A stretch of 64,000 bases of DNA from an uncultured Acidobacteriota bacterium (GTDB lineage: Bacteria; Acidobacteriota; Terriglobia; Terriglobales; Acidobacteriaceae). A program made the position numbers and the translations under genes. Location: contig CAWGSE010000016.1 of assembly GCA_963825205.1 (NCBI GenBank), positions 27,421 to 91,420 on the forward strand. The letters are read 5' to 3'. Position 1 is the first letter of the stretch. Each line of letters begins with the position of its first letter. Below, piece by piece: positions 3,781 to 58,923 of this stretch. A model generated the notes under the pieces. The model ran no database searches. It saw only the letters and a program-made list of their open reading frames with translations, and was not told the DNA's origin.

Positions 3781-3953
3781 GCGCTGGAGCCGAGCAGGCT
3801 CTTTTGTTCGGCCAAAGGAGCCGCACCGGCATGCTGGGGATTGCCGGTCAGGTGAAGCGGCTGGGGCTGACCGTTGACTACGGATGGGGTAATGGATTGT
3901 CCCCAAGTCAGCGAGGCAAAAAGGAGGAAGCACAGCAAGCCGGTCGTTTTCAT
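3639..3953 (-). CDS. Small secreted hypothetical protein
   Basis: Internal ATG 3953 of ORF 3639..4082 gives the signal peptide MKTTGLLCFLLFASLTWGQS, with GGAGA upstream. Confidence 0.55.
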   Translation of the reverse strand: MKTTGLLCFLLFASLTWGQSITPSVVNGQPQPLHLTGNPQHAGAAPLAEQKSLLGSSAYSSAKGERPLWEVAPPPRPTTPLADTARALRKQHESAKKAIFIREN

Positions 3954-4316: not shown

Positions 4317-4808
4317 CTACCCTTGCCGGAGGACGACTGAGATGTATCCCAAGACAGCGCCGAGCGCACCATAAACAGCCGCACTCAAAGGAGCTAGACC
4401 TAACAGGACCGTCCCAAGCGAGGGCTCGACGGTAATTGTCAGCGCACACGCTGGACAGACAGAAAAAACAGACTGAGGGCTAGTGTGCCAGCTGTGCGGA
4501 GCAAAGGATAGCCCCACAACCACGAGATAAGAAACAGCTGCGAAGCCCGCAAGCATCTTGATGGGAAGGGACGACCGTTTGCCCGGTTCGATCTTGCGCG
4601 CCTTCTGAACCCATGACCCGGGTAGTAGGCCGATCAAGACAGAAGATACCCCCACCACCATCAGCGCTGCCGAATATAGCGACCAACTTCCGTGGGAGGC
4701 TGGATCAAAACCTCGCAGCGCGATATACATTCGACTCAGCGCAACAGAGATCAGTCCACACACAAGGAATGCAATGCGGGACGGTATTCCGATCAGCCTG
4801 CTCGCCAT
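4317..4808 (-). CDS. Hypothetical integral membrane protein
   Basis: ORF 4317..4871. Several hydrophobic segments. Start placed at MASRLIG (4808). Confidence 0.45.
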   Translation of the reverse strand: MASRLIGIPSRIAFLVCGLISVALSRMYIALRGFDPASHGSWSLYSAALMVVGVSSVLIGLLPGSWVQKARKIEPGKRSSLPIKMLAGFAAVSYLVVVGLSFAPHSWHTSPQSVFSVCPACALTITVEPSLGTVLLGLAPLSAAVYGALGAVLGYISVVLRQG

Positions 4809-4928: not shown

Positions 4929-5861
4929 TTAATTCGCGAGGCTTTCCAGGTTCTTCGGTGCCGGGGGCTTGTACCCCGGCGGAGCGCCCTTTTCGAGAAA
5001 AGGAATATCGTCGGGCACCTGAACCTCGACCCGGCCTTGCGGGGTTAATTTGTACGGACGCCCGGTCGGGTCCACGGGGATCGCGCGCAACAGGTTCGCC
5101 GCTACCAGGTCCGACATCGAGGACGGCAGTTGCCCGGTCTTCTGACCATACTGGGACACCAGCTCTTCCAGCGCGGTTACATCATCTTCAACCTGAATGG
5201 CGCGCAGGTGAGCGATGGCGTTGCCACGGATTTGCTTGTCCTGGGAACTTTGGTAGGTGGTTGTCCACAGGGCGCGCGCCATCTGGGTATCGCCGGCGTG
5301 CTGCGCCATCTGCGCCGCCATGACTTTCAGAAACGGATGCGCGTTCGGCGCCTGCGAGCCGCGCGCGAAAGCGTCCGCGGCCTTGCCATAGTTCTTCATG
5401 TCCATGTAGTAGACGAATCCCAGCTCGTAGTAGAGCTTCCAATCGTCGGGATTGTTCTGGATTCCGAATTCCACCAGTTGGACGGCTTTGTCCGGCATGC
5501 CGGCCCCGTTCGGCGGCTTCGGCGATAAAAAGTTCGCGCCGAACTGGTACGCCACCACCAGGTGCGGGTCGAGGCTGGTCGCGATTCCGAGCAGCGGCGC
5601 CAGCAGACGATAGTGGCTGGCCCCGGCCACGTGCCTTCCCCCGAAGTACTGCACGGCCCGCGTCCAGTAGATGTCCGCCAACAGCCCGTCATAGCCAAGG
5701 CTCAGCCGCTTCACGGTTTGCGGAGAGCTGATGAAGAGCACTTCCTCCAGGGTCGCGCCGGTGCGCAGTTGATCGATCTTCCTCAGAAAAAACACCGACC
5801 CCAGTAAGCAGGCGATCAGCATCCCGCTGGCCGCAATCGTTACTGTTCGCGAACGGTTCAT
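4929..5861 (-). CDS. Membrane-anchored TPR-like protein associated with the ABC-2 transporter
   Basis: ORF 4929..5900. ATG 5861 overlaps the permease stop (ATGA). An N-terminal TM segment is followed by a helical-repeat-like sequence. Confidence 0.65.
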   Translation of the reverse strand: MNRSRTVTIAASGMLIACLLGSVFFLRKIDQLRTGATLEEVLFISSPQTVKRLSLGYDGLLADIYWTRAVQYFGGRHVAGASHYRLLAPLLGIATSLDPHLVVAYQFGANFLSPKPPNGAGMPDKAVQLVEFGIQNNPDDWKLYYELGFVYYMDMKNYGKAADAFARGSQAPNAHPFLKVMAAQMAQHAGDTQMARALWTTTYQSSQDKQIRGNAIAHLRAIQVEDDVTALEELVSQYGQKTGQLPSSMSDLVAANLLRAIPVDPTGRPYKLTPQGRVEVQVPDDIPFLEKGAPPGYKPPAPKNLESLAN

Positions 5862-45996: not shown

Positions 45997-46440
45997 ATGA
46001 TTGCACTTCGCCTTGTCCACCTGATCGAGAGCCACTCCGAAGAACTGGCGGAAGGACTCACCAAAAAACTGCTTTCCTCCGAACGCACCCGCGATCTGCG
46101 CAAGGTGCCGGCCGATGAGTTGCATCATCGCTGTCATGAGATTTACCGCAATCTCAGCGACTGGCTCCTGAACAAAACCGAGCACGATATCGAAAGCGTG
46201 TACAAGGCTCTCGGAGCTCGCCGCGCAGGCCAGGGAGTGTCGGGTGCCTGTCTGACCTGGGCCATCCTGCTCACCAAGGAGCATCTGTGGACCTTTCTGG
46301 AGTGGGAAGGCGTGCACGGCGGCCTGCACAATGTTTTCGGAGAACTCGAGTTGCTGAGGCTGCTCGATCAATTCTTTGACCGGGCTGTCTACTACGCGGC
46401 GGAAGGGTACGAGGAAGCCATCGCGTCGCGGGTGGCATGA
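45997..46440 (+). CDS. Hypothetical all-helical protein (147 aa)
   Basis: ORF track. GGGAGG upstream. No family recognised with confidence. Confidence 0.55.
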   Translation: MIALRLVHLIESHSEELAEGLTKKLLSSERTRDLRKVPADELHHRCHEIYRNLSDWLLNKTEHDIESVYKALGARRAGQGVSGACLTWAILLTKEHLWTFLEWEGVHGGLHNVFGELELLRLLDQFFDRAVYYAAEGYEEAIASRVA

Positions 46441-46446
46441 GGGCAC

Positions 46447-46508
46447 AAGCTTTTTACCGCAGAGATCGCAGAGAAGGCCGCAGAGGACGCGGAGAAAACT
46501 CTTAACCG
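46447..46508. repeat. CCGCAGAG/GCGGAGAA-type repeat arm (left arm of an inverted pair)
   Basis: AAGCTTTTTACCGCAGAGATCGCAGAGAAGGCCGCAGAGGACGCGGAGAAAACTCTTAACCG matches the reverse complement of 46873-46935. Confidence 0.85.
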
Positions 46509-46579
46509 TTCAATTGCGTGACACCCGAGCTCGTGAAGGCCACCGGCTGCGAGTGCTGCTAAATCCCTCCGATCTGGAA

Positions 46580-46789
46580 GCTGTTGTGCGGTAGCTGCCG
46601 TGATTGAGCTGCCGTGATTGAGCTGCCGTGATTGAGCTGCCGTGATTGAACTGCCGTGATTGAGCCGCTGTGATTGAGCCGCTGTGATTGAGCTGCTGTG
46701 ATGTAGCTGCTGTGATGTAGCTGCTGTGATGGAAATGCTGTAATGGAAATGCTGTAATGGAAATGCTGTAATGGAAATGCTCTGTCCCT
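46580..46789. repeat. 14-bp tandem repeat array (13 clear units plus degenerate end units)
   Basis: Units from 46594: 4x GCTGCCGTGATTGA, ACTGCCGTGATTGA, 2x GCCGCTGTGATTGA, 2x GCTGCTGTGATGTA, GCTGCTGTGATGGA, 3x AATGCTGTAATGGA. Confidence 0.95.
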
Positions 46790-46872
46790 GCACTCGCAAG
46801 GGGAATTCGCTCGCTGAGCCTGCGTTCCCGGGGAAGTGCTGTTCATGCCTTAGCCCACTGGGTTTGCCTTAG

Positions 46873-46935
46873 CGGTTAAAGGATTTTCTCAGCGCCCTCT
46901 GCGAAGCCTCCGCGCCCTCTGCGGTAAAAGCTTTT
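46873..46935. repeat. CCGCAGAG/GCGGAGAA-type repeat arm (right arm, inverted)
   Basis: CGGTTAAAGGATTTTCTCAGCGCCCTCTGCGAAGCCTCCGCGCCCTCTGCGGTAAAAGCTTTT. It overlaps the last ~15 codons of the CYTH gene. Confidence 0.85.
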
Positions 46936-47494
46936 GCCCGCCGCCAATCGCCCGAAACGTCATTTCCATAGCGGAACTCCGGCTCTCGCGCTTCCATTTG
47001 AAAAATAAACCCGCGTACGTGTCAGCGATGTAGTCCTGGGTCGAGATTCCCAGGAGTTTCGCAGTACGGTCTATCCACCGCGCCGGCCCTTCGATCTCGC
47101 CGAATTCTCCAATCGGCGTCACATCCAGCACCAACTGGCCCCGCCCGTCGCTCCACTCCGCCCGGAGCTTCTCGTAACGGAAGCTCGGCCGGAACCGCAG
47201 CGCCAGCAGAATGGCCTCCATCTTCTCGCCGTCGGCCACTTTGGTTTCGGTTTCCATGCGTGTTTTGTGGCGGCCCACCGTGCCCTTCGCCTTGTGCGTC
47301 AGCACCCAATCCTTCCCGTATTTGCGAAGCCGCAGCAGCTCGCCGCGCTTGCGCAGGGGCTGTCCCGGCAAATCGTAAAGCGTGTTCATTTCATGAGTGC
47401 GCGGCGTGACCAGTCGAAACTTCGCCGCCCGCAGCCGGCGTGTGAGTGCACGCAAGTTTGTAATCCGAAACTTGATCTCGATTTCTTTGGGCAT
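46889..47494 (-). CDS. CYTH domain protein (CyaB-like class IV adenylate cyclase / triphosphatase fold)
   Basis: N-terminal MPKEIEIKFRI (ExExK). The C-terminal tail QKLLPQRARRLRRGR is encoded by the repeat arm. Confidence 0.8.
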   Translation of the reverse strand: MPKEIEIKFRITNLRALTRRLRAAKFRLVTPRTHEMNTLYDLPGQPLRKRGELLRLRKYGKDWVLTHKAKGTVGRHKTRMETETKVADGEKMEAILLALRFRPSFRYEKLRAEWSDGRGQLVLDVTPIGEFGEIEGPARWIDRTAKLLGISTQDYIADTYAGLFFKWKRESRSSAMEMTFRAIGGGQKLLPQRARRLRRGR

Positions 47495-47502
47495 GGGGAC
47501 AA

Positions 47503-47647
47503 GGCTCTAGGCTTTAGGCTCTCGCAACTTTTCCGGCTGCGCCAACAGAATTTCACATTGCGCGTTGCGAGCCAGAAGCGGCCGCAAAACACGAGAGCCA
47601 GAGCCTAGAGCCTAGAGCCTAAGCCTAAAGCCTAGAGTCCAAAGCCC
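47503..47647. repeat. Composite hairpin repeat with 7-nt GGCTYTA-type arms
   Basis: The left arm GGCTCTAGGCTTTAGGCTCTCG pairs with the right arm CGAGAGCCAGAGCCTAGAGCCTAGAGCCTAAGCCTAAAGCCTAGAG. An inner 8-bp stem CTCGCAAC/GTTGCGAG is also present. It lies between the DedA-rhodanese stop and the CYTH start. Confidence 0.8.
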
Positions 47648-47653
47648 GCCCTG

Positions 47654-48634
47654 CTAACCAAACGTCGGCAACTTCACCAGATCCTCGCGCGGCACCGACT
47701 CCAGCGGTTGTCCCGCCTTGCGCCACGCCGCCAGCCCGCCGACAATGATAAACGCGTTGAATCCCTTTTCCCGCAGCATGTGCGCCACCCGGGCGCTGGT
47801 GCCTTCGCGCACTCAAGTGCAGTAGAGATAGATATCTCGATCCTTCGGAAGTTTCTTGAGTTCTTCCTCGAAGTTGTTGGGTTCGATGCGGATCGAGCCC
47901 TTGATGCGCGCCATCTCCGCGTCATAATAGCCGTGGCTGCGGACGTCCACCACCAAAACCCTCTCCGCTTCCGCCGAGGCCAGCTTCTCAATCAGTTCCT
48001 GCACCTGCACGCGCGGCACCACCCGGTACACTCGGTTCTTCCGGACCAGCCACAGCCGGTACGCGACGTACACCACGACGCCCACAAGCAGGACTTCTTC
48101 AATGGCACGTCCCGCGGTCTGGAAGGTGCGGCTGATGGCCTTGAGGAAGTCGCGACCCAGCAGCCCCAGCAGGAAATAGGCAAGCACGTACAGCGCGGCG
48201 CCCGCCAGGTCGAATCGCAGGAACTGGGAAAAGGGCATCTTCATGCTGCCCGCCAGGGGAGGCCCCATGGTGTTCACGCCGGGAATGAACTTGGCCACGA
48301 CCAGCGTGCTCTTGCCGCGCTTGTAGAACGACTCGGCGGAGCGCAGGATGCAGGTCTCGGGATTGGCCGACACTTTGCACAGGAATCCGAGAAGCGCCCA
48401 GCCCGAATGCCGGCCGGCAAAGAATAATAGGGTATCGCCCAGCACCATCGCGGCCAATGCGAGTGGCAACAGAACGGGAGCGCTCAACAGGTGCCCGGCG
48501 GCCGCCGCACCCGCGACAACCAGACCCAGGGCCGCGGGCACGGGTAGCCCAATCGCCTCCGCGAAGACCATCGCGACGACAATGCTGTATCCGTGCCGGG
48601 AGATCAACGAAACCAGGTCCGCCATGCGCTTCAA
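47654..48634 (-). CDS. DedA-family membrane domain fused to a rhodanese domain; in-frame TGA (47813-47815) at the expected catalytic Cys position, candidate selenocysteine
   Basis: ORF 47813..48634 ends ...KDRDIYLYCT-TGA. The same frame continues VREGTSARVAHMLREKGFNAFIIVGGLAAWRKAGQPLESVPREDLVKLPTFG to TAG 47654-47656, which completes the rhodanese domain. Confidence 0.6.
47780..47812 (-). promoter_or_regulatory. SECIS-like hairpin immediately 3' of the in-frame UGA
   Basis: The RNA can fold as GUGCGC-GAAGG-CACC-AGCGCCCG-GGUG-GCGCAC. An alternative fold is GCGCC-CGGGU-GGCGC, starting 16 nt after the UGA. Confidence 0.4.
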
Positions 48635-48750
48635 GCTAGATTAACGGGGATTGGAAGCGCAGTCCAGCCGGACGCAGGCCACGAAATGCGGAATCCGCGC
48701 CGGGTTCGCCATCATCCAACCAGAAAATCCATTCGTTCTTTCGAGGTGCT

Positions 48751-49152
48751 ATGTCCAGTTCAATAGCGACTGCCACACGCCGCCACATCAACCTTCCCGG
48801 CCGTACCTCGGCACTTCCTTTCAGCGATGCCGTGCTGGTGGGAGAGACACTTTACCTGGCTGGCCGGATCGGCCTCGACCCGGTGACCGGCCGCGCCCCC
48901 GCCGACGTGAGTGCCGAGATCCAACTGCTCCTCGATGGCGTCGAGGCCGTGCTGGCCGAGGCCGGCATGAAAATGGACGACCTGGTGTCGGTGCAGATAT
49001 TTTCTCCCGACCTTTCGCTGTGGGAGCCTTTCAACGCGGCGTATGTGAAGCGCTTTTCGAAAGAATTGCCGGCGCGGGCGTTTATCGGGTCCGGACCGTT
49101 GTTGCTGGGCGGGCGCTTCGAGTTGATTGGCATGGCGGTGCGAAGATCTTAA
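48751..49152 (+). CDS. RidA/YjgF family reactive-intermediate deaminase-like protein
   Basis: ORF track. FSDAVLVGETLYLAGRIGLDPVTG...ARAFIGSGPLLLGGRFELIGMA. The stop TAA lies inside the left terminal inverted repeat of the next element. Confidence 0.8.
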   Translation: MSSSIATATRRHINLPGRTSALPFSDAVLVGETLYLAGRIGLDPVTGRAPADVSAEIQLLLDGVEAVLAEAGMKMDDLVSVQIFSPDLSLWEPFNAAYVKRFSKELPARAFIGSGPLLLGGRFELIGMAVRRS

Positions 49153-49247
49153 ACCGCAGAGGGCGCGGAGAACGGCCGCAGAGCACGCAGAGAAACTCCC
49201 AGGAGAGTTCTGACACCGGGAAAGGTCCGAGGAAAAGCGCGGCCGCC

Positions 49248-49413
49248 TCAGCGATCTCTGCGGCAGTTCTCGGCGCACTCTGCGGTGGGCTCGTCTTCCC
49301 GATAGTCATTCACCATCCGCCGAACCCCGTCCCGCAACAGAACCACGTGGAAGTTGATCACCAGCCCAACCTGCAGGCCGAGCAGCCTGAGATGGGAGAG
49401 CAATTGTGCCTCG
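49248..49413 (-). pseudogene. 3' fragment of a GxxExxY gene created by a 244-bp tandem duplication
   Basis: ORF 49248..49553 contains HLVDEAQLLSHLRLLGLQVGLVINFHVVLLRDGVRRMVNDYREDEPTAECAENCRRDR, which duplicates the C-terminus of ORF 49492..49977. Confidence 0.8.
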
Positions 49414-49491
49414 TCAACCAGATGCTGGGAGCCTTCAAACTTCCAGGAGAGTTCTGACACCGGGAAAGGTCCGAGGAAAAGCGCGGCCGCC

Positions 49492-49914
49492 TCAGCGATC
49501 TCTGCGGCAGTTCTCGGCGCACTCTGCGGTGGGCTCGTCTTCCCGATAGTCATTCACCATCCGCCGAACCCCGTCCCGCAACAGAACCACGTGGAAGTTG
49601 AGCAGCAGCCCAACCTGCAGGCCGAGCAGCCTGAGATGGGAGAGCAATTGTGCCTCGTCAACCGGATGCAACTGATCCTTGCATTTCAATTCAACCACAA
49701 CCCGGCTATCTACCAGCAGATCCGCGCGAAACCCACACTCCAGCTTCACGCCTTCGTAAATTAAAGGCACACTCTTCTGTTGAATCACGCTGAGCCCTTG
49801 CGTCTTAAGTTCATAAGCGAGACACGCCTCATAGGCGGACTCCAGCAAGCCAGGACCGAGGCGGCGATGAATCTTGATTGCCGCTCCGATGATTCGATCG
49901 GTCAATTGAAACAT
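49492..49914 (-). CDS. GxxExxY family protein
   Basis: Start placed at ATG 49914 (MFQLTDRIIGAAIKIHRRLGPGLLESAYEACLAYELKTQG). The GLLESAY motif matches GxxExxY. The C-terminal tail is encoded by a repeat arm. Confidence 0.85.
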   Translation of the reverse strand: MFQLTDRIIGAAIKIHRRLGPGLLESAYEACLAYELKTQGLSVIQQKSVPLIYEGVKLECGFRADLLVDSRVVVELKCKDQLHPVDEAQLLSHLRLLGLQVGLLLNFHVVLLRDGVRRMVNDYREDEPTAECAENCRRDR

Positions 49915-50050
49915 CGGGATTCGGCCAGTCCGCTGCGAAATGGGCTGCAGGCTACGGGATGCAAGGGGAAGGCTCATGAAGCCGACGTTAGAGCAGGAAA
50001 TATGCGAGGTCTGTAACGGTTGTCACGCGAACACGTGAGCCCTTCTGGAT

Positions 50051-50197
50051 TTTCTCTGCGAACTCCACGGTAGTTCTCCGCGAACGCTGCGGCAGTTCTC
50101 CCCGAACTCCAGGCAGTTCTCCGCGAACTTTGCGGCAGTTCTCCGCGACTTTACGGCGGTTCTCTGCGCCCTCTCCGCGCCCTCTGCGGTTTAAGAT
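50051..50197. repeat. Six to seven tandem 21-22-nt units (TTCTCCGCGAACTNTGCGGCAG type) forming the right arm of the element
   Basis: Units read from 50051: TTCTCTGCGAACTCCACGGTAG, TTCTCCGCGAACGCTGCGGCAG, TTCTCCCCGAACTCCAGGCAG, TTCTCCGCGAACTTTGCGGCAG, TTCTCCGCGACTTTACGGCGG, and TTCTCTGCGCCCTCTCCGCGCCCTCTGCGGTTTAAGAT. Confidence 0.9.
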
Positions 50198-50201
50198 GTT
50201 G

Positions 50202-51209
50202 CTACTTCTCCCGCGCCACGACAAACTCGGGAGCCCACAGCAAAGCCCGCTTGATCTCCGAGTCAGGAAATGTGCAGATCGCCTTGCGCGCTGCTTCCGC
50301 GTAGTGCGTGGCCCGGGCATGCGCGGCTTCGAGGGCGCCGTAGCGGCTCAAAATTGCCAGGATATCCGCGTGGGTCACGCCGTTAAAGGCGCGATCGCGC
50401 AGCACGGTCGCGATTTTCTCGCGCTCCGCCGGCGTGCAGCGCTCCAGCGCGTAGATCACCGCCATGGTGACCTTGCCCTCGCGCAGGTCGCTGGCCACAG
50501 GCTTGCCCAGCACACTCTCCGAAGCGGTCAGGTCGAGTACGTCGTCCACGATCTGGAATGCCATGCCCAGGTTGCGGCCGTAGGAACCGGCAGCCTCTTC
50601 CTGCTCCGGGGTCGCTTCCCCCAGAATCGCGCCCAGCCGCATGCACACCGAAAACAGGCACGCGGTCTTGCGGAAGATCAGGTCGAAGTGCTCGTCGAGC
50701 GTGATCAACTTGCCCAGCTTTTCCATCTGCAGAAGTTCACCTTCGACCATCTGCTGGGTGAGTTCGATCAAGGTGTCAAGCACGCGGAAGTTGCGCTCCT
50801 GAACCGCGATCTTGAAGGACTGCATGTAGAGCCAGTCGCCGGCCAGCACGCACTTGGAGTTCCCCCAGCGGGTGTTCGCCGCGGGTCGGCCACGCCGGGT
50901 CTGGGCTTCGTCGATGATGTCGTCGTGGACGAGCGTGGCCGTATGAATGATCTCCACCACGGCTCCCAGGCGCACGGCCCCGGTGCCTTTGTACTGAAAA
51001 AGCTTCGCCGCCAGCAGCAGAAGCGCCGGCCGAATGCGCTTACCGCCGCCTTCCCGCAGGTACTCGCCAATCTCGGTGATGGCGGACACGTCGGAGACAG
51101 TGTCCTGCCCGAATTCCGCCTCGATGGCCAGCAGGTCATCGTGCAGCAGTTCGAAAATCTCTTTCCCGTTGATGGCTGAGGGTGTACTCAATCCGCCGCT
51201 TTCACTCAA
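50202..51209 (-). CDS. Polyprenyl diphosphate synthase (trans-isoprenyl, IspB-like)
   Basis: Aspartate-rich motifs LVHDDIIDE and FQIVDDVLD. Confidence 0.9.
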   Translation of the reverse strand: MSESGGLSTPSAINGKEIFELLHDDLLAIEAEFGQDTVSDVSAITEIGEYLREGGGKRIRPALLLLAAKLFQYKGTGAVRLGAVVEIIHTATLVHDDIIDEAQTRRGRPAANTRWGNSKCVLAGDWLYMQSFKIAVQERNFRVLDTLIELTQQMVEGELLQMEKLGKLITLDEHFDLIFRKTACLFSVCMRLGAILGEATPEQEEAAGSYGRNLGMAFQIVDDVLDLTASESVLGKPVASDLREGKVTMAVIYALERCTPAEREKIATVLRDRAFNGVTHADILAILSRYGALEAAHARATHYAEAARKAICTFPDSEIKRALLWAPEFVVAREK

Positions 51210-51217
51210 AATGATCT

Positions 51218-51340
51218 TTCACCACAGAGTCACAGAGACTCGGAGAAAATCGTTTCTAAATTCCAAATCCTCGATCGTGATGCTCGCCCGTACTTCAGAA
51301 TCCTGAGCCCCGATTTTCTTCTCCGTGCCTCGGTGGTGAA
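51218..51340. repeat. Composite hairpin repeat (CACAGAG-type arms) between yajQ and the polyprenyl synthase gene
   Basis: TTCACCACAGAGTCACAGAGACTCGGAGAAAATCG (51218-51252) pairs with CGATTTTCTTCTCCGTGCCTCGGTGGTGAA (51311-51340). Confidence 0.85.
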
Positions 51341-51348
51341 TTGACTCT

Positions 51349-51846
51349 TCAATTCGACCGGTAATTCGTAAACTGCAAATCGATGCCGAAATCGCGCGAC
51401 TTCAGCAGGGCAATGATTTCCTGCAGGGTGTCGCGATCCTTGCCGCTAATCCGAACCAGGTCGCCCTGGATCGACGCCTGCGCCTTCTTCTTCGAGTCCT
51501 TCACCAGCTTTACGATTTCGCGTGCTTTCTCGATAGCGATGCCTTGCTGGATCGTGATCTTCTGTTTGGCCGTGCCGCCCGCTGCCGGCTCCACCGGACC
51601 ATAGGTCAGGCCCTTGAGCGAAATGCCGCGCTTCACCAGTTTCTGCTGCAGGATATCGTTTACGGCCTTGAGCTTGTACTCGTCGGCCGAGTGCAGCAGG
51701 ATGGCGTCCTTGCCCTCCATCTCGATCCTCGACTTGGAGTCCTTCAGATCGAAACGGGTGGTCACTTCCTTCATGGCCTGCTGGATGGCATTGGAGGCCT
51801 CCTGCAGGTCAACTTTGCTGACGATATCGAAAGTATTCTCGGGCAT
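51349..51846 (-). CDS. yajQ: YajQ family nucleotide (cyclic-di-GMP)-binding protein
   Basis: MPENTFDIVSKVDLQEASNAIQQAMKEVTTRFDLKDS... is a characteristic UPF0234/YajQ sequence. Confidence 0.88.
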   Translation of the reverse strand: MPENTFDIVSKVDLQEASNAIQQAMKEVTTRFDLKDSKSRIEMEGKDAILLHSADEYKLKAVNDILQQKLVKRGISLKGLTYGPVEPAAGGTAKQKITIQQGIAIEKAREIVKLVKDSKKKAQASIQGDLVRISGKDRDTLQEIIALLKSRDFGIDLQFTNYRSN

Positions 51847-51907
51847 GATTCGCTACCTGATCAGATTCGCATTTCCCCGCGAAAGTCGCAGCTTACAAGC
51901 TAAACGG

Positions 51908-52711
51908 TCATGCGGTTTTCGTGAAGGGAAAAGAAGCTATGGAAATTTTGCGTAGTCTGTACACCGATTTCCTCCGCGGAGAGACCCCGCAATTCGCCCA
52001 GTGCCGCGCGACCTCTTTGACGAATGCCGGCTCATTGCGCTTGCCGCGATGCGGCACCGGCGCCAGGAATGGGGAATCGGTCTCGATCAGCAGGCGGTCG
52101 AGCGGCACTTCAAGCGCGGCGTCGCGAATCTGCTGCGCCTTCGGGAAGGTGATATTTCCGGCAAAAGAGACCATAAACCCCATGTCGAGCGCGCGCCTGG
52201 CTTGCGCCACGTTGCCGGTGAAGCAGTGCAGGATGCCACCCAGTCCGGCGGGCGCCCATTGTTCCTGAATCAGCCGCAGGCAATCGTCCCAGGCGTCTTC
52301 GCTGCCCTCCGATGGACGGCAATGAATCACGATGGGCAGCTTCGCGCTGCGGGCCAGTTCCATCTGCTTGACGAAGACTCCCTGCTGCACTTCGCGCGGA
52401 GAGTGATCGTAATAGTAATCCAGGCCGATTTCTCCCCAGGCTATGACCTTGGGTCGCTTGGCCATTTGTTCCATGCGCTCGAAGGCGGCCTGGTCTGCGA
52501 GTTTGGCTTCATGCGGATGGATGCCGATGGTCGCATAGATGAACTCGTACTTCTCGGCCAACTGGATGCCGCACTCGAAGTTCACCGGCCCATCGCCATT
52601 GCCGATGGCGACAATTGTGTCCACGCCCGCCTCGCGAGCCCGCGCGATCACCTGCTCGCGATCGGAGTCGAAGCGGTGGCCTTCGAGATGGGCGTGGGAA
52701 TCTACGAACAT
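51908..52711 (-). CDS. tatD: TatD family metal-dependent hydrolase
   Basis: MFVDSHAHL, plus the conserved HCF and ETDSPFL blocks. Confidence 0.9.
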   Translation of the reverse strand: MFVDSHAHLEGHRFDSDREQVIARAREAGVDTIVAIGNGDGPVNFECGIQLAEKYEFIYATIGIHPHEAKLADQAAFERMEQMAKRPKVIAWGEIGLDYYYDHSPREVQQGVFVKQMELARSAKLPIVIHCRPSEGSEDAWDDCLRLIQEQWAPAGLGGILHCFTGNVAQARRALDMGFMVSFAGNITFPKAQQIRDAALEVPLDRLLIETDSPFLAPVPHRGKRNEPAFVKEVARHWANCGVSPRRKSVYRLRKISIASFPFTKTA

Positions 52712-52897
52712 AGTCGCTGGTCGTTAGTCGTCAGTCGTTGGCAAAACCCGCGTAGGGACAGACGCCGTCTTTTGTCCAGACCGAGCGATAGCTCGGCTAG
52801 CTATCTGGGCAACGGTGAACAGCGCTCGGCCAACGTCTAACTCTTTTCCCCCGACGACTGGCGACGTTCTTCCCTGACGACTGAAGACTGAAGACTG
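52712..52897. repeat. Composite hairpin repeat with 7-nt GTCGTYR / CAGTCKT-type arms between metG and tatD
   Basis: The left arm AGTCGCTGGTCGTTAGTCGTCAGTCGTTGGC (52712-52742) pairs with the right arm CCCGACGACTGGCGACGTTCTTCCCTGACGACTGAAGACTGAAGACTG (52849-52897). The loop contains the small hairpin CCGAGC-GATA-GCTCGG. Confidence 0.8.
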
Positions 52898-52899
52898 TT

Positions 52900-54906
52900 C
52901 TATTTCAGCCGAGCTCCCACCGGCACATCCTCAAGAAATCCCGCCAACACGGGTTGCCCACCCTCAAGCGATGCCGCCACGATCATGCCATTCGACTCCA
53001 GGCCGCGCAGCTTGCGGGGCGCGAGGTTGGCGACGATGACCACTTTGCGGCCGACCAGCGTTTCGGGTGCGTAGGCTTCGGCGATCCCGGCCACGATCTG
53101 GCGCACTTCCGTCCCGATGTCGACTTCGAGACGCAGCAACTTGTCGGCATTCTTCACCTTCTCTGCGACTTTCACCACGCCAACCCGCAACTCAACCTTC
53201 ACGAAATCGTCGATGGTGATCTTGCCATCGGGCGTGGCTGCCGGCGGCTTCTGAGCGGGTATGACCGGGCGCAATGCAACCGGGGGCGCGAGTTCAGGTT
53301 TCGTTTCTTCCTCGACCGCTGCCGCGGGGCGTCCTTGCTCTTCCATCTTCTGCATCCTTTCCACGGCGCTCTTGTCGGCGCGCGGGAACACGGGCTGAAC
53401 CTCGCCCAGCCTGGTGCCCAGGCGAAGCTGTCCCCATTTCAATTCGCCCAGGGCGACGGTCTTGATATCTCCCAGGCCCAACTGCGTCCAGATTCTGGCG
53501 GTTGCGTCCGGAATGACCGGGTGTGCCAGCACAGTGACGATGCGCAGCGCTTCGGCAGCCGTATACAGAACGGTGGCCAGGCGGGCGCGGCTATCCTCAT
53601 CCTGCTTTTCTCCCAGCGCCCACGGCTCGTTTTCGACAATGTACTTGTCGACCGCCGCCACCAGCGTCCACGCCACTTCCAGGGCCTTGGAGAACTGGAA
53701 CTGGTCAAACAGGACGTTATAGTTCGCAATCACGTCGCGCGCGATCTCGGCAATCGCATCATCGGCGGGCGTGTGCGACGCGGTGTGCGAGGGATACGGC
53801 ACCTCACCCTTGAAATAGCGGGTGATCATGGTCAGGGTGCGGCTGGCCAGGTTGCCAATCCCATTGGCGAGATCGGAGTTGTAGCGCTGCACCAGGGCAT
53901 CGAATGAAAACGAGCCGTCCGAGCCAAACACCACCTCGCGCAAAAGAAAATAACGCAGCGCGTCGGCGCCGAGCACGTCGAGAATCGTTTCCGCGCGCAC
54001 GATGTTGCCGCGCGACTTCGACATCTTGTTCTCTTCGAACAGCAGCCAGCCGTGCGCCATGATGCCTTTGGGCAACGGCAGTCCCGCAGCCATCAGGAAC
54101 GCCGGCCAGTAGACGCAGTGGAAGCGGACAATTTCCTTGCCGATCATCTGCACGTCGGCCGGCCAGTACTTGTCGTACTTGGCCGTGTCCGGCGACCCGT
54201 AACCGAGCGCGGTAATGTAGTTGGCCAGCGCGTCCAGCCAGACATAGATCACGTGCTTGGGATCGTCGGGCACGGGAATGCCCCAGGAGAACGTGCTGCG
54301 GCTGATGGAAAGATCCTTTAATCCTCCCTTGACGAACGAGATTACTTCGTTGCGGCGCGTCTCCGGGCGGATCCAATTGGGCTGGTCGGTATAGAGCTGC
54401 AGCAACTTGTCCGCGAACGCCGAAAGCTTGAAGAAATAGTTTTCTTCGTGCACGGTTTCGGTGATGCGGCCGCACTCCGGACAGGGCTCACCCGGCCCGA
54501 CATCGACGTACATCTCGTCGGAAACGCAATACTGTCCGGTATAGCTGCCTTTGTAGATGTAGCCGTTCTCGTTAAGCTTGCGGAACAGCGCCTGCACGCT
54601 TTTCTTGTGACGATCTTCGGTGGTGCGGATGAAGTCGTTGTGGGTGAGCCCCATGCGCTTCCAAAGCGCGCGAAATTCGCCGGAAACTTCATCGGCAAAT
54701 TGCTGCGGGGTCTTCCCGGCAGCGGCGGCGGCCCGTTCGATCTTCTGCCCGTGTTCATCGGTGCCGGTCAGGAAATAGGTGTCGTCGCCCAGCATGCGGT
54801 GGCGGCGCGCGATGGTGTCGCAGGCTATGGTCGTGTAGGCGTGTCCGATATGAGGACGCGCGTTGACGTAATAAATCGGGGTCGTGATGTAGAACTTCTT
54901 GCTCAT
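52900..54906 (-). CDS. metG: Methionine--tRNA ligase with C-terminal tRNA-binding domain
   Basis: HIGHAYT and KMSKS motifs, plus the zinc knuckle CPECG. Confidence 0.95.
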   Translation of the reverse strand: MSKKFYITTPIYYVNARPHIGHAYTTIACDTIARRHRMLGDDTYFLTGTDEHGQKIERAAAAAGKTPQQFADEVSGEFRALWKRMGLTHNDFIRTTEDRHKKSVQALFRKLNENGYIYKGSYTGQYCVSDEMYVDVGPGEPCPECGRITETVHEENYFFKLSAFADKLLQLYTDQPNWIRPETRRNEVISFVKGGLKDLSISRSTFSWGIPVPDDPKHVIYVWLDALANYITALGYGSPDTAKYDKYWPADVQMIGKEIVRFHCVYWPAFLMAAGLPLPKGIMAHGWLLFEENKMSKSRGNIVRAETILDVLGADALRYFLLREVVFGSDGSFSFDALVQRYNSDLANGIGNLASRTLTMITRYFKGEVPYPSHTASHTPADDAIAEIARDVIANYNVLFDQFQFSKALEVAWTLVAAVDKYIVENEPWALGEKQDEDSRARLATVLYTAAEALRIVTVLAHPVIPDATARIWTQLGLGDIKTVALGELKWGQLRLGTRLGEVQPVFPRADKSAVERMQKMEEQGRPAAAVEEETKPELAPPVALRPVIPAQKPPAATPDGKITIDDFVKVELRVGVVKVAEKVKNADKLLRLEVDIGTEVRQIVAGIAEAYAPETLVGRKVVIVANLAPRKLRGLESNGMIVAASLEGGQPVLAGFLEDVPVGARLK

Positions 54907-54943
54907 GAGAACTTGAAACCCAGCGGCTGCAAAAGGCGCGAAA

Positions 54944-55000
54944 GTAACCCGAAGGATAACAGGCCGCGCTTCCTTCGTGCTTTCCCGGTGTCCTTCGTGG
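54944..55000. repeat. Hairpin repeat with CACGAAGG-type arms between larC and metG
   Basis: CCGAAGGA (54949-54956) pairs with TCCTTCG (54971-54977). The long arm CTTCCTTCGTGCTTTCCCGGTGTCCTTCGTGG ends at the larC stop. Confidence 0.7.
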
Positions 55001-56407
55001 CTAAGCTTTTTTGCCGGCCGCGCTCAGCAGGTAAGCCTGCGTCGCTTCCTGCATAACGGTTTTCAGCGGTACCCGATGCTGGGCGGCGATGCGGCGGCAA
55101 TCCTCGTACTCAGGCGCGCAGTTGGTCACGGTGCCGTTCATGCTGGCAATTTTCATGCGTACATCGCCCCAGGAAGTCGCTACGGTGACCCAGCGCCGGG
55201 CGAGCGTGTTGCGCTGTTCCTGGCGCTGCCGCACTCCCAGGGTCGTGGTCTCGGCAAAAATGATTTGCGTAAGCTTGGCGGCGTCTGCGGGCTTGCACAG
55301 AACCGTCAGCAGCGTGCCGGGCCGGCTCTTTTTCATTTGCACCGGCATCCCGAAGACGTCCAGCGCGCCCTCTTCGAGCAGGCGGTCGAGCACGTAGCCG
55401 AAGACCTGCGGGTTCAAATCATCCAGGTTCGCCTCCAGCACCGAAATGGTTTCCTGGGCGGTTTTGGAGGCGAGGGCGGAAGCTGCTTCGCCGATCGTGA
55501 TGCGGACCACGTTGGCGTGTCCGGGAAAATCGCGGGTGCCGGCTCCATAGCCGCTGCGCTCAATCTTCATTTCTGGAAATGCTCCGAAGCGGGTGGCCAG
55601 CACCTTCACGATGGCGGCACCCGTAGGGGTGAGCAACTCGGCCTGGATTCCCGAGGAAAAGACCGGCGCATTCTGCAGCAGTTCCACCGTGGCGGGTGCA
55701 GGCACCGGAAACACTCCGTGCGCGCACTTCACTGTACCGCCGCCCAGGTTGAGCGCTGAGCAGACAATTTCTTCCACCCCCAGCGCCTCCGCGCCCACGG
55801 CCGCGCCCACGATGTCGACCATCGCGTCGACCGCGCCCACCTCGTGGAAGTGCACCGCCTCCATGTCCATGTTGTGAATCTTGGCTTCGGCCGCACCCAG
55901 AGCTTCGAAAATGGCAATCGCGGTCTGCTTTGCAGAATCGCTGATTGCCGTGCCCGCGATGATCCGCTTGATCTGCTTCAGGCTGCGACCGTGCTCATGC
56001 AGGCTCCCGCTCCGCGAAGAAGCCGGCGAGTGCGAATGACCGTGCGGATTCTCGTCGAGCGGTGCCGGACCGTGCGAGTGAGCCTGCGCCGGATCGTGTG
56101 AATGCACCGGTGCGGGATCGTGCAGGTGAGCCTGCGCAGGATCGTGCGAATGCGCGTGATCATGCGCAGTTTCGCGCTGCGCCCAAAACTCCTCCCGCGG
56201 CAATTCCTTCTCACCATGGACCAGCACATCCACCTTGGTCGCCGTGATCCCGCTGCGGTTGACCTTCGAGATCTCCAACCGAGCTCCGATGTTGAGCGCC
56301 GCGACGGTTTTCTCCAGCACGTCGGGGGACACCCCGGAGTCGATCAGGGCGCCCAGGAACATGTCGCCGCTCATGCCGGAAAAACAATCAAGGTATGCGA
56401 TCTTCAT
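55001..56407 (-). CDS. larC: LarC-type nickel insertion protein (nickel-pincer cofactor biosynthesis; DUF111)
   Basis: Start placed at ATG 56407 (MKIAYLDCFSGMSGDMFLGALIDSG). His-rich segment HDHAHSHDPAQAHLHDPAPVHSHDPAQAHSHGP. Confidence 0.88.
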   Translation of the reverse strand: MKIAYLDCFSGMSGDMFLGALIDSGVSPDVLEKTVAALNIGARLEISKVNRSGITATKVDVLVHGEKELPREEFWAQRETAHDHAHSHDPAQAHLHDPAPVHSHDPAQAHSHGPAPLDENPHGHSHSPASSRSGSLHEHGRSLKQIKRIIAGTAISDSAKQTAIAIFEALGAAEAKIHNMDMEAVHFHEVGAVDAMVDIVGAAVGAEALGVEEIVCSALNLGGGTVKCAHGVFPVPAPATVELLQNAPVFSSGIQAELLTPTGAAIVKVLATRFGAFPEMKIERSGYGAGTRDFPGHANVVRITIGEAASALASKTAQETISVLEANLDDLNPQVFGYVLDRLLEEGALDVFGMPVQMKKSRPGTLLTVLCKPADAAKLTQIIFAETTTLGVRQRQEQRNTLARRWVTVATSWGDVRMKIASMNGTVTNCAPEYEDCRRIAAQHRVPLKTVMQEATQAYLLSAAGKKA

Positions 56408-56411
56408 CAGG

Positions 56412-56450
56412 ACTTTCTTCACCACAAAAGACACGAAGTACCGAACGAGG
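56412..56450. repeat. Solo repeat arm (TTCACCAC...CACGAAG type)
   Basis: CTTTCTTCACCACAAAAGACACGAAGTACCGAACGAGGG resembles the reverse complement of 54969-55000. Confidence 0.55.
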
Positions 56451-56512
56451 GATCGCGCAGGCTCTTCGGGCCGCGCCGTTCCAGACTAGGGCGCCTCTCA
56501 ACCACGGGCACC

Positions 56513-56690
56513 GCTCAGCGCCCTCTACGGCAGTTCTCCCCGAACTCTGCGGTAGTTCTCCCCGAACTCTGCGGCAGCCCTCCGCGAACTCTGCGGTAGT
56601 CGTCCGTGCACTTTGCGGCAAGTTCTCCCCGAACTCTACGGCAGTTCTCCGCGCCCTCTGCGGTAGTTCTCCGCGAACTCTGCGGTAACA
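56513..56690. repeat. Eight tandem ~22-nt units (TTCTCCCCGAACTCTGCGGYAG type)
   Basis: Contiguous units read from the sequence. The array ends CTGCGGTAACAGCTC, like the terminus at 46921-46935. Confidence 0.9.
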
Positions 56691-56822
56691 GCTCTTCCCC
56701 ACCTTCTCCCCGAAACAAAACTCAAACTTCATGATAGGGAACACAAGTATCCAGCGTCAAACCAGCCGCGCTCTCCCCTTTTGCTACAATCACTAGTTTA
56801 ATCAACAAGTTAGAGGGGCCTT

Positions 56823-58923
56823 GTGTATCGCACGCTGGAACGCCGTTTAATCCATCACGTTAGAGATTTCCTGCGCCGCACCTACGACCTCGATCTCCCG
56901 AAAATCGTGGTGGAGCAACCGCCCAAGGTCGAACTGGGCGAGTACGCCATGCCGCTTGCCTTTGAGCTGGCCAAGAAACTGCGTAAGGCGCCGCGCAAGA
57001 TTGCCGAGGAAATCGTGGCCGGGATCGAGCCGATTGCAGGATTTGAGAAGCTGGAAGTCGCCGGGGCCGGCTACATCAATGCCCGCGTGCACCGCGGCGC
57101 GGTAGCTGCGGGGTTGCTGGCCGACGAGAATCCCCAAGTCGACGTGCCCGCCGGCAAAATTCTGGTCGAGCACTCCAGCATCAACCCCAACAAGGCCGCG
57201 CACATCGGCCACCTGCGCAATGCGATTCTGGGCGACACGTTTGTCCGGTTGCTTCGTTTTGCCGGCAGGGAAGTCGATGTTCAGAACTACATTGACAACA
57301 CCGGCGTACAGGTGGCCGACGTGGTCGTGGGCTTTCTCTATCTCGAGAAGAAATCCCGGGCTGAGATCGAACGGCTTGCCGCTCAGCCGCGCTTTGACTA
57401 CGAGTGCTGGGACCTCTACGCGCGCGCCTCGCAGTGGTATGCCGAGGACAAGCAGAACCAGCAGGCACGGCTTAAGACCCTGCACGAAATCGAAGCCGGC
57501 GGAAACGAAGTCGCTGCCATCGCCGACCTGATTTCGGTGGCGGTGCTTCGCCGCCACCTCGAGACCATGGACCGGCTCGATATCGAATACGACTTCCTGC
57601 CGCGGGAGAGCGAAATTCTGCATTTGCATTTCTGGGACGCCGCTTTTGCGAAGCTAAAAGACGCGGGGGTGCTGTTCTACGAGACGGAAGGGAAGAACAA
57701 GGGCTGCTGGGTGATGCGGCGAGCGGGCACTGCGAAAAAATCTGAAACCGCAGAGGTCGCGGAGAACGCCGCAGAGGACGCGGAGCAGGCTGCAGAGGAG
57801 GCGGAGAAAGCTGCAAAGGACGCGGAGAAGCCAGCAGGGGACGCCGAGAAGCCAGCCAAGGACGCCGAGTCTCCCGATGTGGTCTCTGCGGAAGATCAGA
57901 AAGTGATTGTCCGGTCCAACGGTACCGTCGGCTACGTGGGCAAGGACATCGCCTACCACATGTGGAAGTTCGGGCTGCTCGGACGCGACTTCGAATACTG
58001 CAGGTTTTACAAATATCCGAACCAGCACCAGGTGCTGGATTTCGGCGGCCCAGGGCGAGCAAGACCATCCTCATTTCGGCGACGTGGCTGAAATCTATAA
58101 CGTCATTGACGCGCGCCAGGCGGAGGCGCAGAACACCGTCATCGAAGCCCTGCGCGGGCTCGGCCACAACGACGCCGCCGACCATTACACCCATTTTTCC
58201 TACGAGATGGTTGCGCTGACTCCGCGCTGCGCCGCCGAACTGGGCTACCAGTTGTCGGACGAGGATAAGGCCCGGCCCTACATCGAAGTCTCGGGCCGCA
58301 AAGGCTTTGGCGTGAAAGCGGATGACCTGCTCGACCGCCTCATCGCGTCCGCAAAAGCGGAAGTCGATCCGCGCCATCCCCAGTTGAGCGACCAGGAGCG
58401 GCGCAGCATCGCCACCCAGATCGCCATCGGAGCTTTGCGCTACTTCATGCTGAAGTACACCAAGCCATCGGTCATCGCCTTCGACTTCAAAGATGCGTTG
58501 AGCTTCGAGGGCGAAACCGGGCCCTACGCGCAATATGCCGTGGTGCGCGCCACTAACATTTTCCGCAAAGGGGGATTCGATCCCGACAAGTTCAGCCAGG
58601 ACACGTCCAACCATCTCTCGGCGGAGGACTTCGGGAAGTCATTGGCGGGCGAATCGGGCAACGAAATCTGGGAGCTCTGGTTAGCCGCGGCCAAGACTGC
58701 GTACGTGGTGGACCAGTGCATTGCGACCACGGAGCCCGCGTATCTCGCCAAGCACGCATTTCAACTGGCCCAGCTCTTTAACTACTTTTACCACCGCCAT
58801 CCCATCTTGAATGAAGCCGATGAGGGCCGGAAGAAATTTCTGCTGGCCACGGTAGCGGTGGTGCGCCGCGAACTGATGCGTACGCTGGTGGTCCTGGGTA
58901 TCACTGTCCCGCCAGTGATGTAG
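56823..58923 (+). CDS. argS: Arginine--tRNA ligase, interrupted as given by one extra nt at about 58035, and carrying an in-frame repeat-derived insertion
   Basis: ORFs 56823..58091 and 57907..58923. HIGH-type motif AAHIGHLRNAILGD. The frame switch is at YPNQHQV|WISAAQGEQDHPHFGDVAEIYNVIDARQ. The gene is essential, so the frameshift is probably a sequence error. Confidence 0.92.
57740..57896. repeat. CCGCAGAG/GCGGAGAA-type element inserted in frame within argS
   Basis: ATCTGAAACCGCAGAGGTCGCGGAGAACGCCGCAGAGGACGCGGAG...TCTCTGCGGAAGAT. Both ends resemble the 26-bp TIR of the 49146-50197 element. It is translated as SETAEVAENAAEDAEQAAEEAEKAAKDAEKPAGDAEKPAKDAESPDVVSAED. Confidence 0.75.

Follow-up and report, generated by a model that had tools for sequence, protein, structure and literature searches.

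A GxxExxY gene set between opposed arrays of a dispersed short repeat in an acidobacterial genome

Introduction

How does a small gene of the GxxExxY family come to lie between two perfectly inverted repeats, wedged between the stop codons of two convergent host genes? The question is raised by a 1,052-bp unit (49146-50197) in a 64,000-nt stretch of DNA, hereafter the window, from an uncultured Acidobacteriota bacterium (Terriglobales, Acidobacteriaceae; GenBank assembly GCA_963825205.1, contig CAWGSE010000016.1, positions 27,421-91,420). An earlier note on this DNA, made without database searches, had read the unit as mobile or formerly mobile, with the gene-carrying unit as the autonomous member and arm-only hairpins as its non-autonomous relatives. 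The family itself, PF13366/TIGR04256, is among the larger bacterial families without an assigned function. It comprises 35,104 clusters at 50% identity (E <= 1e-3); a 2012 survey of PD-(D/E)XK proteins classes PDDEXK_3 as 'Unknown' (PMC3424549), and our full-text literature search, the coverage of which was incomplete, found three papers that name the family and no account of GxxExxY function, flanks or layout.

The answer that we favour, with confidence somewhat short of even, is that the unit may be a GxxExxY nuclease cassette within a family of arrays resembling repetitive extragenic palindromes (REPs), and that gene and repeat work, or once worked, as a pair comparable to the REPIN hairpins and their REP-associated tyrosine transposases (RAYTs), with a different enzyme. 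The anatomy of the unit, the ratio of gene to repeat, the lineage-specific repeat sequence and largely vertical inheritance under selection all match the REPIN/RAYT pattern, and a partnership of a nuclease with its cognate repeat is favoured for that reason. The GxxExxY nuclease would recognise its cognate arrays, probably as single-stranded or hairpin DNA, and cut them. New intergenic sites, mostly directly after stop codons, would then receive arrays copied by host replication or repair, and the gene-bearing version would be copied rarely.

Results and Discussion

Ends and anatomy of the unit

The two ends of the unit match at 26 of 26 positions, 49146-49171 (ATCTTAAACCGCAGAGGGCGCGGAGA) being the exact reverse complement of 50172-50197. 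The terminal match reaches 29 nt at 97% identity, and no 26-nt inverted match arose in dinucleotide-preserving shuffles of the window. The stop codon of the RidA-family gene (TAA, 49150-49152) falls within the terminus of the left repeat (TCTTAAAC), and that of the polyprenyl diphosphate synthase gene (50202-50204) follows the right repeat after a gap of 4 nt. The earlier note had described these exact ends and stop codons correctly, together with a hairpin at the left arm, a truncated GxxExxY fragment beside a complete gene with a GLLESAY motif, tandem units at the other end, and a recurrence of the terminus inside argS, all of which were recovered here (Table 1). Its reading of the ends as terminal inverted repeats (TIRs) specific to a transposon did not hold. 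Each inverted end is the outermost unit of one of two arrays that face each other and consist of an 11/22-nt repeat (CCGCAGAGnnCGCGGAGAAnnn, with the terminus AAAATCTTAAA), and the two are not unique element ends because the same repeat family is present 21 times in the window (unit CCGCAGAGnnCGCnGAG; 0.1 occurrences expected). The repeat occupies five places: the unit, 46447-46935, 56514-56687, the argS array and the 3' end of the GxxExxY gene, where repeat units (49491-49530) encode the last ~14 residues of the protein. Only about five intergenic regions of the window bear arrays.

One intact GxxExxY gene was detected in the window by tblastn, and the conserved core of its open reading frame (ORF) begins at M22 (49914). 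A 244-bp tandem duplication has copied the 3' end of this gene and the sequence downstream, and the truncated fragment is a by-product of that event. The left hairpin pairs the left array with the inverted array that ends the truncated copy (arms 49153-49192 and 49247-49286, spacer 54 nt); its fold has an energy of -77.9 kcal/mol (z = -5.6, either strand). In the array upstream of the gene, Tandem Repeats Finder reported a 22-nt period (x5.4, 50052-50168) and an 11-nt period (50161-50185). TTAA occurs at both ends of the unit, where it is palindromic and part of the repeat.

A conserved block lies between the gene and its upstream array, and its GTGAC-N4-GTYAC palindrome is kept in 14 Terriglobales units. 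A sigma-70-like match (GTGACA-16 nt-CATATT) overlaps the palindrome, and scored 9/12 in a promoter scan. The block is probably a promoter or operator borne by the cassette, an assignment that is tentative because the -10 hexamer is not conserved.

Two features of the unit, its perfect 26-bp ends and its 244-bp duplication, are recent local rearrangements. At the same locus in L276 (our locus numbers are used where needed), with a GxxExxY protein 97% identical, there are two upstream units and the outer CCGCAGAGGGCGCGGAGA unit is missing; the perfect 26-nt identity is therefore lineage-specific. Likewise, the duplication is lineage-specific because it is absent from the orthologous unit of L277 (GxxExxY 89% identical). 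The window's perfect ends look like the outcome of local conversion or expansion. In L001, L011, L015 and L096 the outer TCTTAAACCGCAGAG is common to both arms (the outer consensus TCTTAAACCGC recurs at all four loci) and the variable positions differ; since the arms are alike outside and differ at these positions, the arrays behave like variable-number repeats.

Table 1. Features of the repeat-bounded unit, its flanks and the other array sites, in window coordinates
Feature	Position	Strand	Evidence or remarks
Gene-less inverted arrays, AAGCTTTTTACCGCAGAG...CTCTGCGGTAAAAGCTT	46447-46935	.	Between convergent RsbRD_N-like and CYTH genes
RidA-family gene (flank)	48751-49152	+	PF01042, E = 1.5e-18
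Left terminus AAGATCTTAAA and two 22-nt units (49153-49196)	49146-49196	+	Units in CCGCAGAG orientation
Local hairpin, left array against inverted array ending the truncated gene copy	49146-49292	.	40-nt arms, 85% complementary
244-bp tandem duplication	49193-49669	.	98% identical copies, 49193-49425 and 49437-49669
Truncated GxxExxY 3' fragment, residues about 97-161	49248-49445	-	tblastn match 49251-49445, 86% identity
Intact GxxExxY / PDDEXK_3 gene, 161-aa ORF	49492-49977	-	PF13366, TIGR04256
Conserved upstream block	49999-50026	-	Palindrome GTGAC-N4-GTYAC at 50013-50026
Upstream array, ~6.5 units of 22 nt	50047-50197	+	Orientation opposite to left array
Polyprenyl diphosphate synthase gene (flank)	50202-51209	-	PF00348, E = 9.6e-73; convergent with RidA
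Gene-less array, 7.4 units of 22 nt	56514-56687	+	Upstream of argS
Terminus (2 mismatches) and six 21-nt units	57740-57869	+	In frame within the argS catalytic domain

Arrays without the gene

A metagenome scan was carried out with the terminus plus array as the query (CTTAAAYCGCWGAGNNNGCSGAGAA), and the figures given here cover the matches listed. Among these, 72 distinct copies yielded the consensus aAAatCTTAAAtCGCAGAGnnCGCGGAGAAcngCCGCaGAGnncGCnGAG, which the left terminus of the unit fits. A gene stood beside the array in one of the 57 listed matches whose inward sequence was 1 kb or longer (~98% without a gene), an inverted partner within 300 nt, forming a hairpin, was present in six of 57, and about 50 of 57 were solo 45-nt arrays; 88% of the gene-less copies were one-armed. 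The arrays lay at the 3' ends of genes, often between convergent genes, and in 11 of 81 the TAA of the terminus was the stop codon of the upstream gene. The division into autonomous and non-autonomous members proposed in the earlier note fits these numbers, as gene-less arrays dominate (56 of the 57 matches listed, roughly 50 to 1), but most of them are solo 45-nt arrays and not hairpins.

Two other readings were considered and rejected. A solo array as an RNA hairpin or terminator was dismissed on finding that its fold is not stronger than that of shuffled sequence. For a viral origin, the 15-mer terminus had 31 matches in IMG/VR; these are chance matches because none has arrays. A single-protein scan of IMG/VR found no relatives, tblastn against 50,697 phage records gave no match, and a profile scan of IMG/VR found seven distant relatives, of use only as further examples of flanks.

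The GxxExxY protein

The window protein matched PF13366 (E = 1.6e-38, 132.1 bits against a cut-off of 22) and TIGR04256 (E = 2.1e-40, 137.7 bits against a cut-off of 35), and these were its only matches in Pfam and NCBIfam, with no DDE, HUH or recombinase domain. Neither PADLOC nor PHROGs models matched it, and searches of PDB by sequence, with the single protein or a profile, found no relative. The family motif reads G22-L-L-E25-S-A-Y28, and the predicted catalytic residues are E25, D65, E75, K77 and Q89 (140-aa numbering); G..LLE..Y (E25), D65, E75-x-K77 and H..Q89xxxY are invariant in a 60-sequence alignment that spans several phyla. The AlphaFold2 model built on this alignment had a pLDDT of 89.3 and a pTM of 0.81, with the repeat-encoded tail (residues 127-140) below pLDDT 50 and predicted to be disordered. 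A first model from a shallow alignment (pLDDT 57, weak Hjc/RecU-type matches) was discarded in favour of this one. The best Foldseek neighbours were the lambda-exonuclease-type LHK-Exo, Cas4 SSO0001 and lambda exonuclease (probability 0.97-1.00, TM about 0.45-0.48); over the wider set, which included MGME1, probabilities were 0.8-1.0 and TM about 0.35-0.48, and the top matches were all PD-(D/E)XK nucleases. The confident model is that of a minimal PD-(D/E)XK nuclease of the Cas4/lambda-exonuclease kind, and the catalytic motif (E..D..ExK..QxxxY) is intact, in agreement with the nuclease-like fold that the earlier note had given for the family. A variant architecture was also observed: proteins P0241-P0254 are about 270-295 aa long and contain two GxxExxY domains in tandem.

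The dN/dS ratio (nonsynonymous to synonymous divergence) was 0.05-0.07 where measurable, which points to strong purifying selection on the gene. Within the window's clade the synonymous sites of GxxExxY are saturated; dS was 0.85-0.93 for the synthase and 1.25-2.7 for RidA, and the proportion of synonymous differences (pS) was 0.77-0.91 for GxxExxY vs 0.51-0.73 for both flanking genes. The high synonymous divergence could reflect allele replacement or simply weak codon bias. The G+C content at third codon positions is 0.50-0.64 in the GxxExxY gene (49492-49914; also L001 and L011) vs 0.70-0.82 in the synthase gene. Between sister species its synonymous divergence is saturated, with a dS of about 0.9-1.7 for the flanking genes.

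Occupancy of the synthase-RidA junction

The closest homologs of the gene (80-89% identical) share its position, metG-tatD-yajQ-polyprenyl synthase > GxxExxY < RidA, and have the termini of the window unit, and the cassette of the window's clade is old and vertically inherited, with arrays that expand and contract. A scan with the synthase, limited to one genome per species, recovered 80 orthologous loci from metagenome-assembled genomes of Terriglobales and Ca. Sulfotelmatobacter. The gene was present at the junction in only six of the 80 species (L034, L039, L068, L083, L085 and L095), and its occupancy is patchy across the synthase tree. True empty sites were found in L030, L035 and L074, where 7 nt without any array lead from the last codon of the synthase to the end of RidA and the two stop codons overlap. 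Other species have a solo array at this junction or a scar-like mini-hairpin (L022 and L025). The cassette is an insertion relative to the empty junctions of sister species.

The cassette also occurs elsewhere. In L096 a gene for a GxxExxY protein 80% identical to that of the window lies between a hypothetical gene and a Tricorn/PD40 gene, and its termini, AAAATCTTAAACCGC...GCGGTTTAAGG (AAAATCTTAAACCGCTGAG...CTCTGCGGTTTAAGG), are the ends of the window cassette. Arrays were present on both sides in all 12 Terriglobales units examined, although degenerate in L085, and in L068 the gene sits between two same-orientation arrays. In the Terriglobales data, opposed array pairs 530-650 nt apart were found only around the GxxExxY gene. 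As for other cargo, what lies within same-orientation pairs at a spacing of 800-2500 nt is a set of ordinary host genes (SnoaL, ABC permease, 2-oxoglutarate (2OG) oxygenase, CMD, aldo-keto reductase and GNAT).

These observations bear on a classical transposon, in which the unit would be a 1,052-bp insertion sequence (IS) with GxxExxY as a cut-and-paste transposase and the arm-only hairpins as miniature inverted-repeat transposable elements (MITEs). Such an element would account for the inverted termini, the outer sequence of which is conserved between two unrelated loci, for the empty sites, for the many gene-less relatives with the same terminus and for TTAA at both ends. We nevertheless regard it as unlikely. 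No consistent target-site duplication was found, solo arrays lack TTAA at their inner end, the perfect TIR is lineage-specific, and a TIR transposase could not mobilise the 88% of listed gene-less copies that are one-armed. Moreover, PF13366 is the sole domain detected, with no DDE, HUH or recombinase domain, and we know of no lone 125-aa PD-(D/E)XK domain that acts as a transposase; TnsA requires TnsB. There is also no sign of recent transposition, as synonymous sites between copies are saturated.

The mobility proposed in the earlier note stands in part: true empty junctions and a second locus exist, but no duplication and no near-identical copy was found, and inheritance in the clade is vertical. 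That orthologous loci are not always occupied was settled by the six-of-80 count. For the target-site duplication that the note had suggested looking for, the comparison of filled and empty sites, from species too diverged for base-by-base alignment, showed nothing consistent, and the palindromic TTAA was all that the two ends shared. Neither a target-site duplication nor a recent copy was found in support of active transposition. The hypothesis of the earlier note passed the three checks that it had named as able to refute it, and its interpretation as a whole is partly supported.

Long and variable duplications of flanking sequence were found in L001 and L083. In L001 a copy of ~48 nt from the 3' end of the synthase is repeated beyond the cassette (3780-3825 and 4560-4607), and the displaced copy is closer to relatives than the gene-attached one; the arrangement resembles what a Campbell-type or recombinational insertion would leave behind. 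A similar duplicate of ~20 nt from the 3' end of RidA was observed in L083.

GxxExxY genes in other phyla

Genes from other phyla were collected by tblastn on plasmid and chromid records, by the IMG/VR profile scan and by contig look-ups. GxxExxY genes flanked by arrays were found in seven phyla, and inverted flanks in six. With a simple ungapped flank score and 264 random placements in the same loci as controls, 17 of 22 genes scored above the control 95th percentile (median 16.5 for the 22 genes vs a control mean of 8.6, 95th percentile 11 and maximum 14). The flank layout is therefore shared well beyond the window, as expected from the earlier note, but not by all, since some distant members have direct flanks.

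As a rule, the flanking repeat is a dispersed repeat of the same genome. In Gemmatirosa (L253) two perfect hairpin modules (TGAACCGCAGAGGACGCAGAGGGCCGCAGAGGA) mark the intergenic locus; of two ~1-Mb replicons, one contains at least 40 copies of the 96-nt hairpin and the second at least 39 (at least 79 in all), and the GxxExxY matches, at three places, were confined to a single replicon. In Bacteroides (L255 and L275) the gene follows radA in thousands of contigs, with TTCACCACAGAGGAC... / ...GTCCTCTGTGGTGAA arms (30 nt, 90-93%); B. finegoldii records contain many copies of the arm, for the most part at unannotated positions, and the arm cross-matches arrays in Gemmatirosa and cyanobacteria. 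In Sphingomonas (L256) the gene lies between fabD and fabG with TTCACGCGAAGGCGCGAGGACGCGA and its inverse (92%), an arm that recurs over the replicons of S. parapaucimobilis. Other examples are Bernardetia (L254, after ade, CACAGAG-type arms of 28 nt), Chamaesiphon (L268, between two flavodiiron genes, 43-nt arms, 91%) and Treponema (L267, before a Fic gene, 16-nt arms). The fabD-fabG junction of S. paeninsulae is empty, with a ~35-nt spacer and no array; in that case the insertion consists of the arrays and the gene. The gene between the hairpin modules of Gemmatirosa kalamazoonensis plasmid 1 (L253, 2489-2866) is a frameshifted pseudogene with DxK for ExK.

Could an ordinary chromosomal gene have acquired common intergenic repeats on both sides by chance? 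Arrays do occur at several gene-less intergenic sites of the window, and inheritance is stable in some clades (the Bacteroides radA locus, and the window's own clade). Chance is nevertheless strongly disfavoured and in our view very improbable, given the excess of matching flanks in 17 of 22 genes over seven phyla, the 12 of 12 array-flanked Terriglobales units against about five array-bearing intergenic regions in the window, the restriction of 530-650-nt opposed pairs to the GxxExxY gene, and empty sites that are array-free.

The arms also raise the possibility of a function in RNA. They may pair in a read-through transcript, where RNase III would cut the stem or translation would be blocked, so that the cassette is excised or silenced; the local hairpins would act as bidirectional terminators, with mobility a separate matter. 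In Sphingomonas, Bacteroides and Chamaesiphon, arms of 25-43 nt that are 90-93% complementary abut the ORF in operon-like contexts, and the upstream Sphingomonas arm, which contains a Shine-Dalgarno-like GAGGA, stops 3 nt short of the start codon. In the window, the left hairpin starts at the RidA stop codon and ends in GCGGUUUAAGAU on the strand of the GxxExxY gene, with A/T-rich outer flanks (TTTAAGAT), and arrays in general lie mostly at gene 3' ends or between convergent genes. However, strong as this hairpin is, a consensus terminator scan did not call it, and no Rfam family matched over 46000-58500. In Terriglobales the promoter-like block lies downstream of the upstream array, that is, on its inner side, so that the upstream arm may be outside the mRNA of the gene. 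The arms show no compensatory changes, solo arrays are unstructured, and the dispersal of gene-less arrays would remain unexplained. We consider this RNA-level function quite improbable as the main explanation, and it may be an added layer.

The main rival is a homing-like process, in which a free-standing, selfish GxxExxY nuclease gene cuts arrays that belong to a REP-like or terminator-like family of independent origin, and repair copies the gene into them; the gene would then end up in a hairpin loop (inverted flanks) or in a single array (direct flanks). Both kinds of flank are seen, L068 has its gene between two same-orientation arrays, and plasmid 2 of Gemmatirosa has at least 39 hairpins and no gene. 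The patchy occupancy of one junction across species, which may be empty or hold a solo array, a hairpin or the gene, resembles that of homing endonuclease genes, and the higher pS of GxxExxY relative to its flanking genes hints at allele replacement. On the other hand, high pS may partly stem from weak codon bias, the empty Sphingomonas site is array-free, which implies that the arrays and the gene came in jointly or one after the other, and there is no intron or intein context. The fold neighbors, Cas4 and lambda exonuclease, are not known homing endonucleases, and I-Bth0305I (PDB 3r3p) appeared in Foldseek only at an insignificant E of about 1. We hold this homing-like origin to be rather unlikely.

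Comparison with known systems

For the comparison with REPIN/RAYT we used the properties described in PMC3116915, PMC3337134 and PMC5581495. Both systems have a single small enzyme gene between opposed copies of a short repeat; an intergenic repeat dispersed tens to hundreds of times, as singlets and inverted doublets, with a lineage-specific sequence; and an enzyme gene that is low-copy, largely vertical and under purifying selection. In both, the repeat far outnumbers the gene (21 units vs one gene in the window; at least 79 vs three in Gemmatirosa). The differences are equally clear. The enzyme here is predicted to be a PD-(D/E)XK nuclease and RAYT is an IS200/IS605-like HUH Y1 tyrosine transposase; the repeat here is a ~11-nt tandem array with an A/T-rich terminus, whereas REP is a palindrome of 20-40 nt tagged by GTAG or CGTC; no fold is seen in solo arrays, and some family members are direct-flanked. 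The GxxExxY cassette would accordingly be an analogue of REPIN/RAYT and not a member.

Several observations weigh against such a partnership. The link between the protein and the repeat is one that we infer, and the gene could simply insert into pre-existing arrays. Unlike palindromic REPs, solo arrays do not stand out from shuffled sequence in folding (z = -0.9 and -1.2), and no compensatory changes between arms were seen in the few Bacteroides orthologs and the Terriglobales units compared. The copies of Fusobacteria, Prevotella and Persicobacter have direct, not inverted, short-unit array flanks. No Foldseek match reached E <= 0.001 (best 2.3e-3), and the structural neighbors of the predicted model are end-processing exonucleases, not known mobility enzymes. 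There was no consistent target-site duplication, filled and empty sites being too diverged for base-by-base alignment; no near-identical copies at two loci were found, the closest non-orthologous copy having a dN of 0.115 and saturated synonymous sites.

Other systems share fewer of these properties. An insertion sequence with its MITEs also combines a gene unit with inverted ends, short gene-less units with the same terminus, and empty sites; here, in contrast, there is no recognised transposase, no target-site duplication or recent copy was found, gene-less copies are mostly one-armed, and the ends are variable-number tandem repeats. Free-standing homing endonuclease genes include the PD-(D/E)XK type I-Ssp6803I and the Vsr-like I-Bth0305I. 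Like the cassette, they are small nuclease genes between conserved host genes, patchy at one precise site, and pseudogenised copies occur (Gemmatirosa); the cassette differs in having no intron or intein and in always being accompanied by repeat arrays. Intervening sequences of 23S rRNA, which RNase III excises, carry an S23p (four-helix-bundle) ORF. These, too, place a small ORF of a multi-copy family in stem-forming inverted repeats within a transcribed host region, but the hosts of the cassette are mRNA operons or intergenic spacers, and the protein family is another one.

With respect to the protein alone, Cas4, lambda exonuclease and the RecB family (PDB 4ic1, 3syy and 3slp) share the PD-(D/E)XK core and the E, D, ExK and QxxxY motifs, and a published pipeline annotated a cas4 gene as a GxxExxY domain (PMC8934634). 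GxxExxY differs from Cas4 in its length of about 125 aa, roughly 60% of that of Cas4, and in having no Fe-S cysteine cluster, and the cassette has no CRISPR or recombination partner genes.

Systematic bracketing by a dispersed repeat of the genome's own gives the GxxExxY family its first testable hypothesis, that of a nuclease acting on those repeats, and would provide a class of intergenic repeats that lacks an enzyme with a candidate. The broadest form of the idea, that GxxExxY proteins as a family are the enzymes of unrecognised cross-phylum repeat-plus-nuclease elements that make, spread or maintain genome-specific ~11-nt arrays, is possible but doubtful. If true, these elements would represent a second route, one that does not use an HUH enzyme, to the REP/RAYT lifestyle, and they would account for a widespread class of intergenic repeats made of short tandem units in Acidobacteriota, Gemmatimonadota, Bacteroidota, Cyanobacteriota and Proteobacteria. 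On the practical side, arrays distort gene calls by supplying stop codons, C-terminal tails and the in-frame insertion in argS, and they break short-read assemblies; their copy number differs between close relatives, which makes them possible strain markers.

Other repeat sites in the window and related genomes

The array within argS has a period of 21 nt, vs 22 nt in the non-coding arrays; it encodes AEDAEKA-type heptads, and the Pfam match ends at residue 282. The gene (56823-58923) consists of two overlapping frames, 56823-58091 and 57907-58923, which indicates a frameshift or a sequencing error. The array upstream of it lies in a divergent region, between argS and a LarC-like nickel-insertion gene (55001-56434, minus strand).

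The gene-less unit at 46447-46935 has a loop made of a 14-nt tandem repeat (AGCTGCTGTGATTG, x10.6, 46579-46781), and the CYTH ORF extends into its array. We considered this unit as a deletion derivative of the gene-carrying one and rejected the idea, as only the arrays align; a common 8-mer (GCGTGACA) was not significant.

Unrelated inverted arrays of short tandem repeats, of the GGTCGTTGG, GCTTCTAGC and CAGTTCTC types, were observed at the synthase-RidA junction of L016, L021, L027, L049, L066, L073 and L081 (~4990-5180). It seems that, in this order, convergent intergenic regions generally feature hairpins made up of short tandem units. The window itself contains a further example near the unit, a different hairpin family formed by opposed heptamer arrays, (AGGCTCT)x3 at 47502-47522 and (AGAGCCT)x6.6 at 47594-47646.

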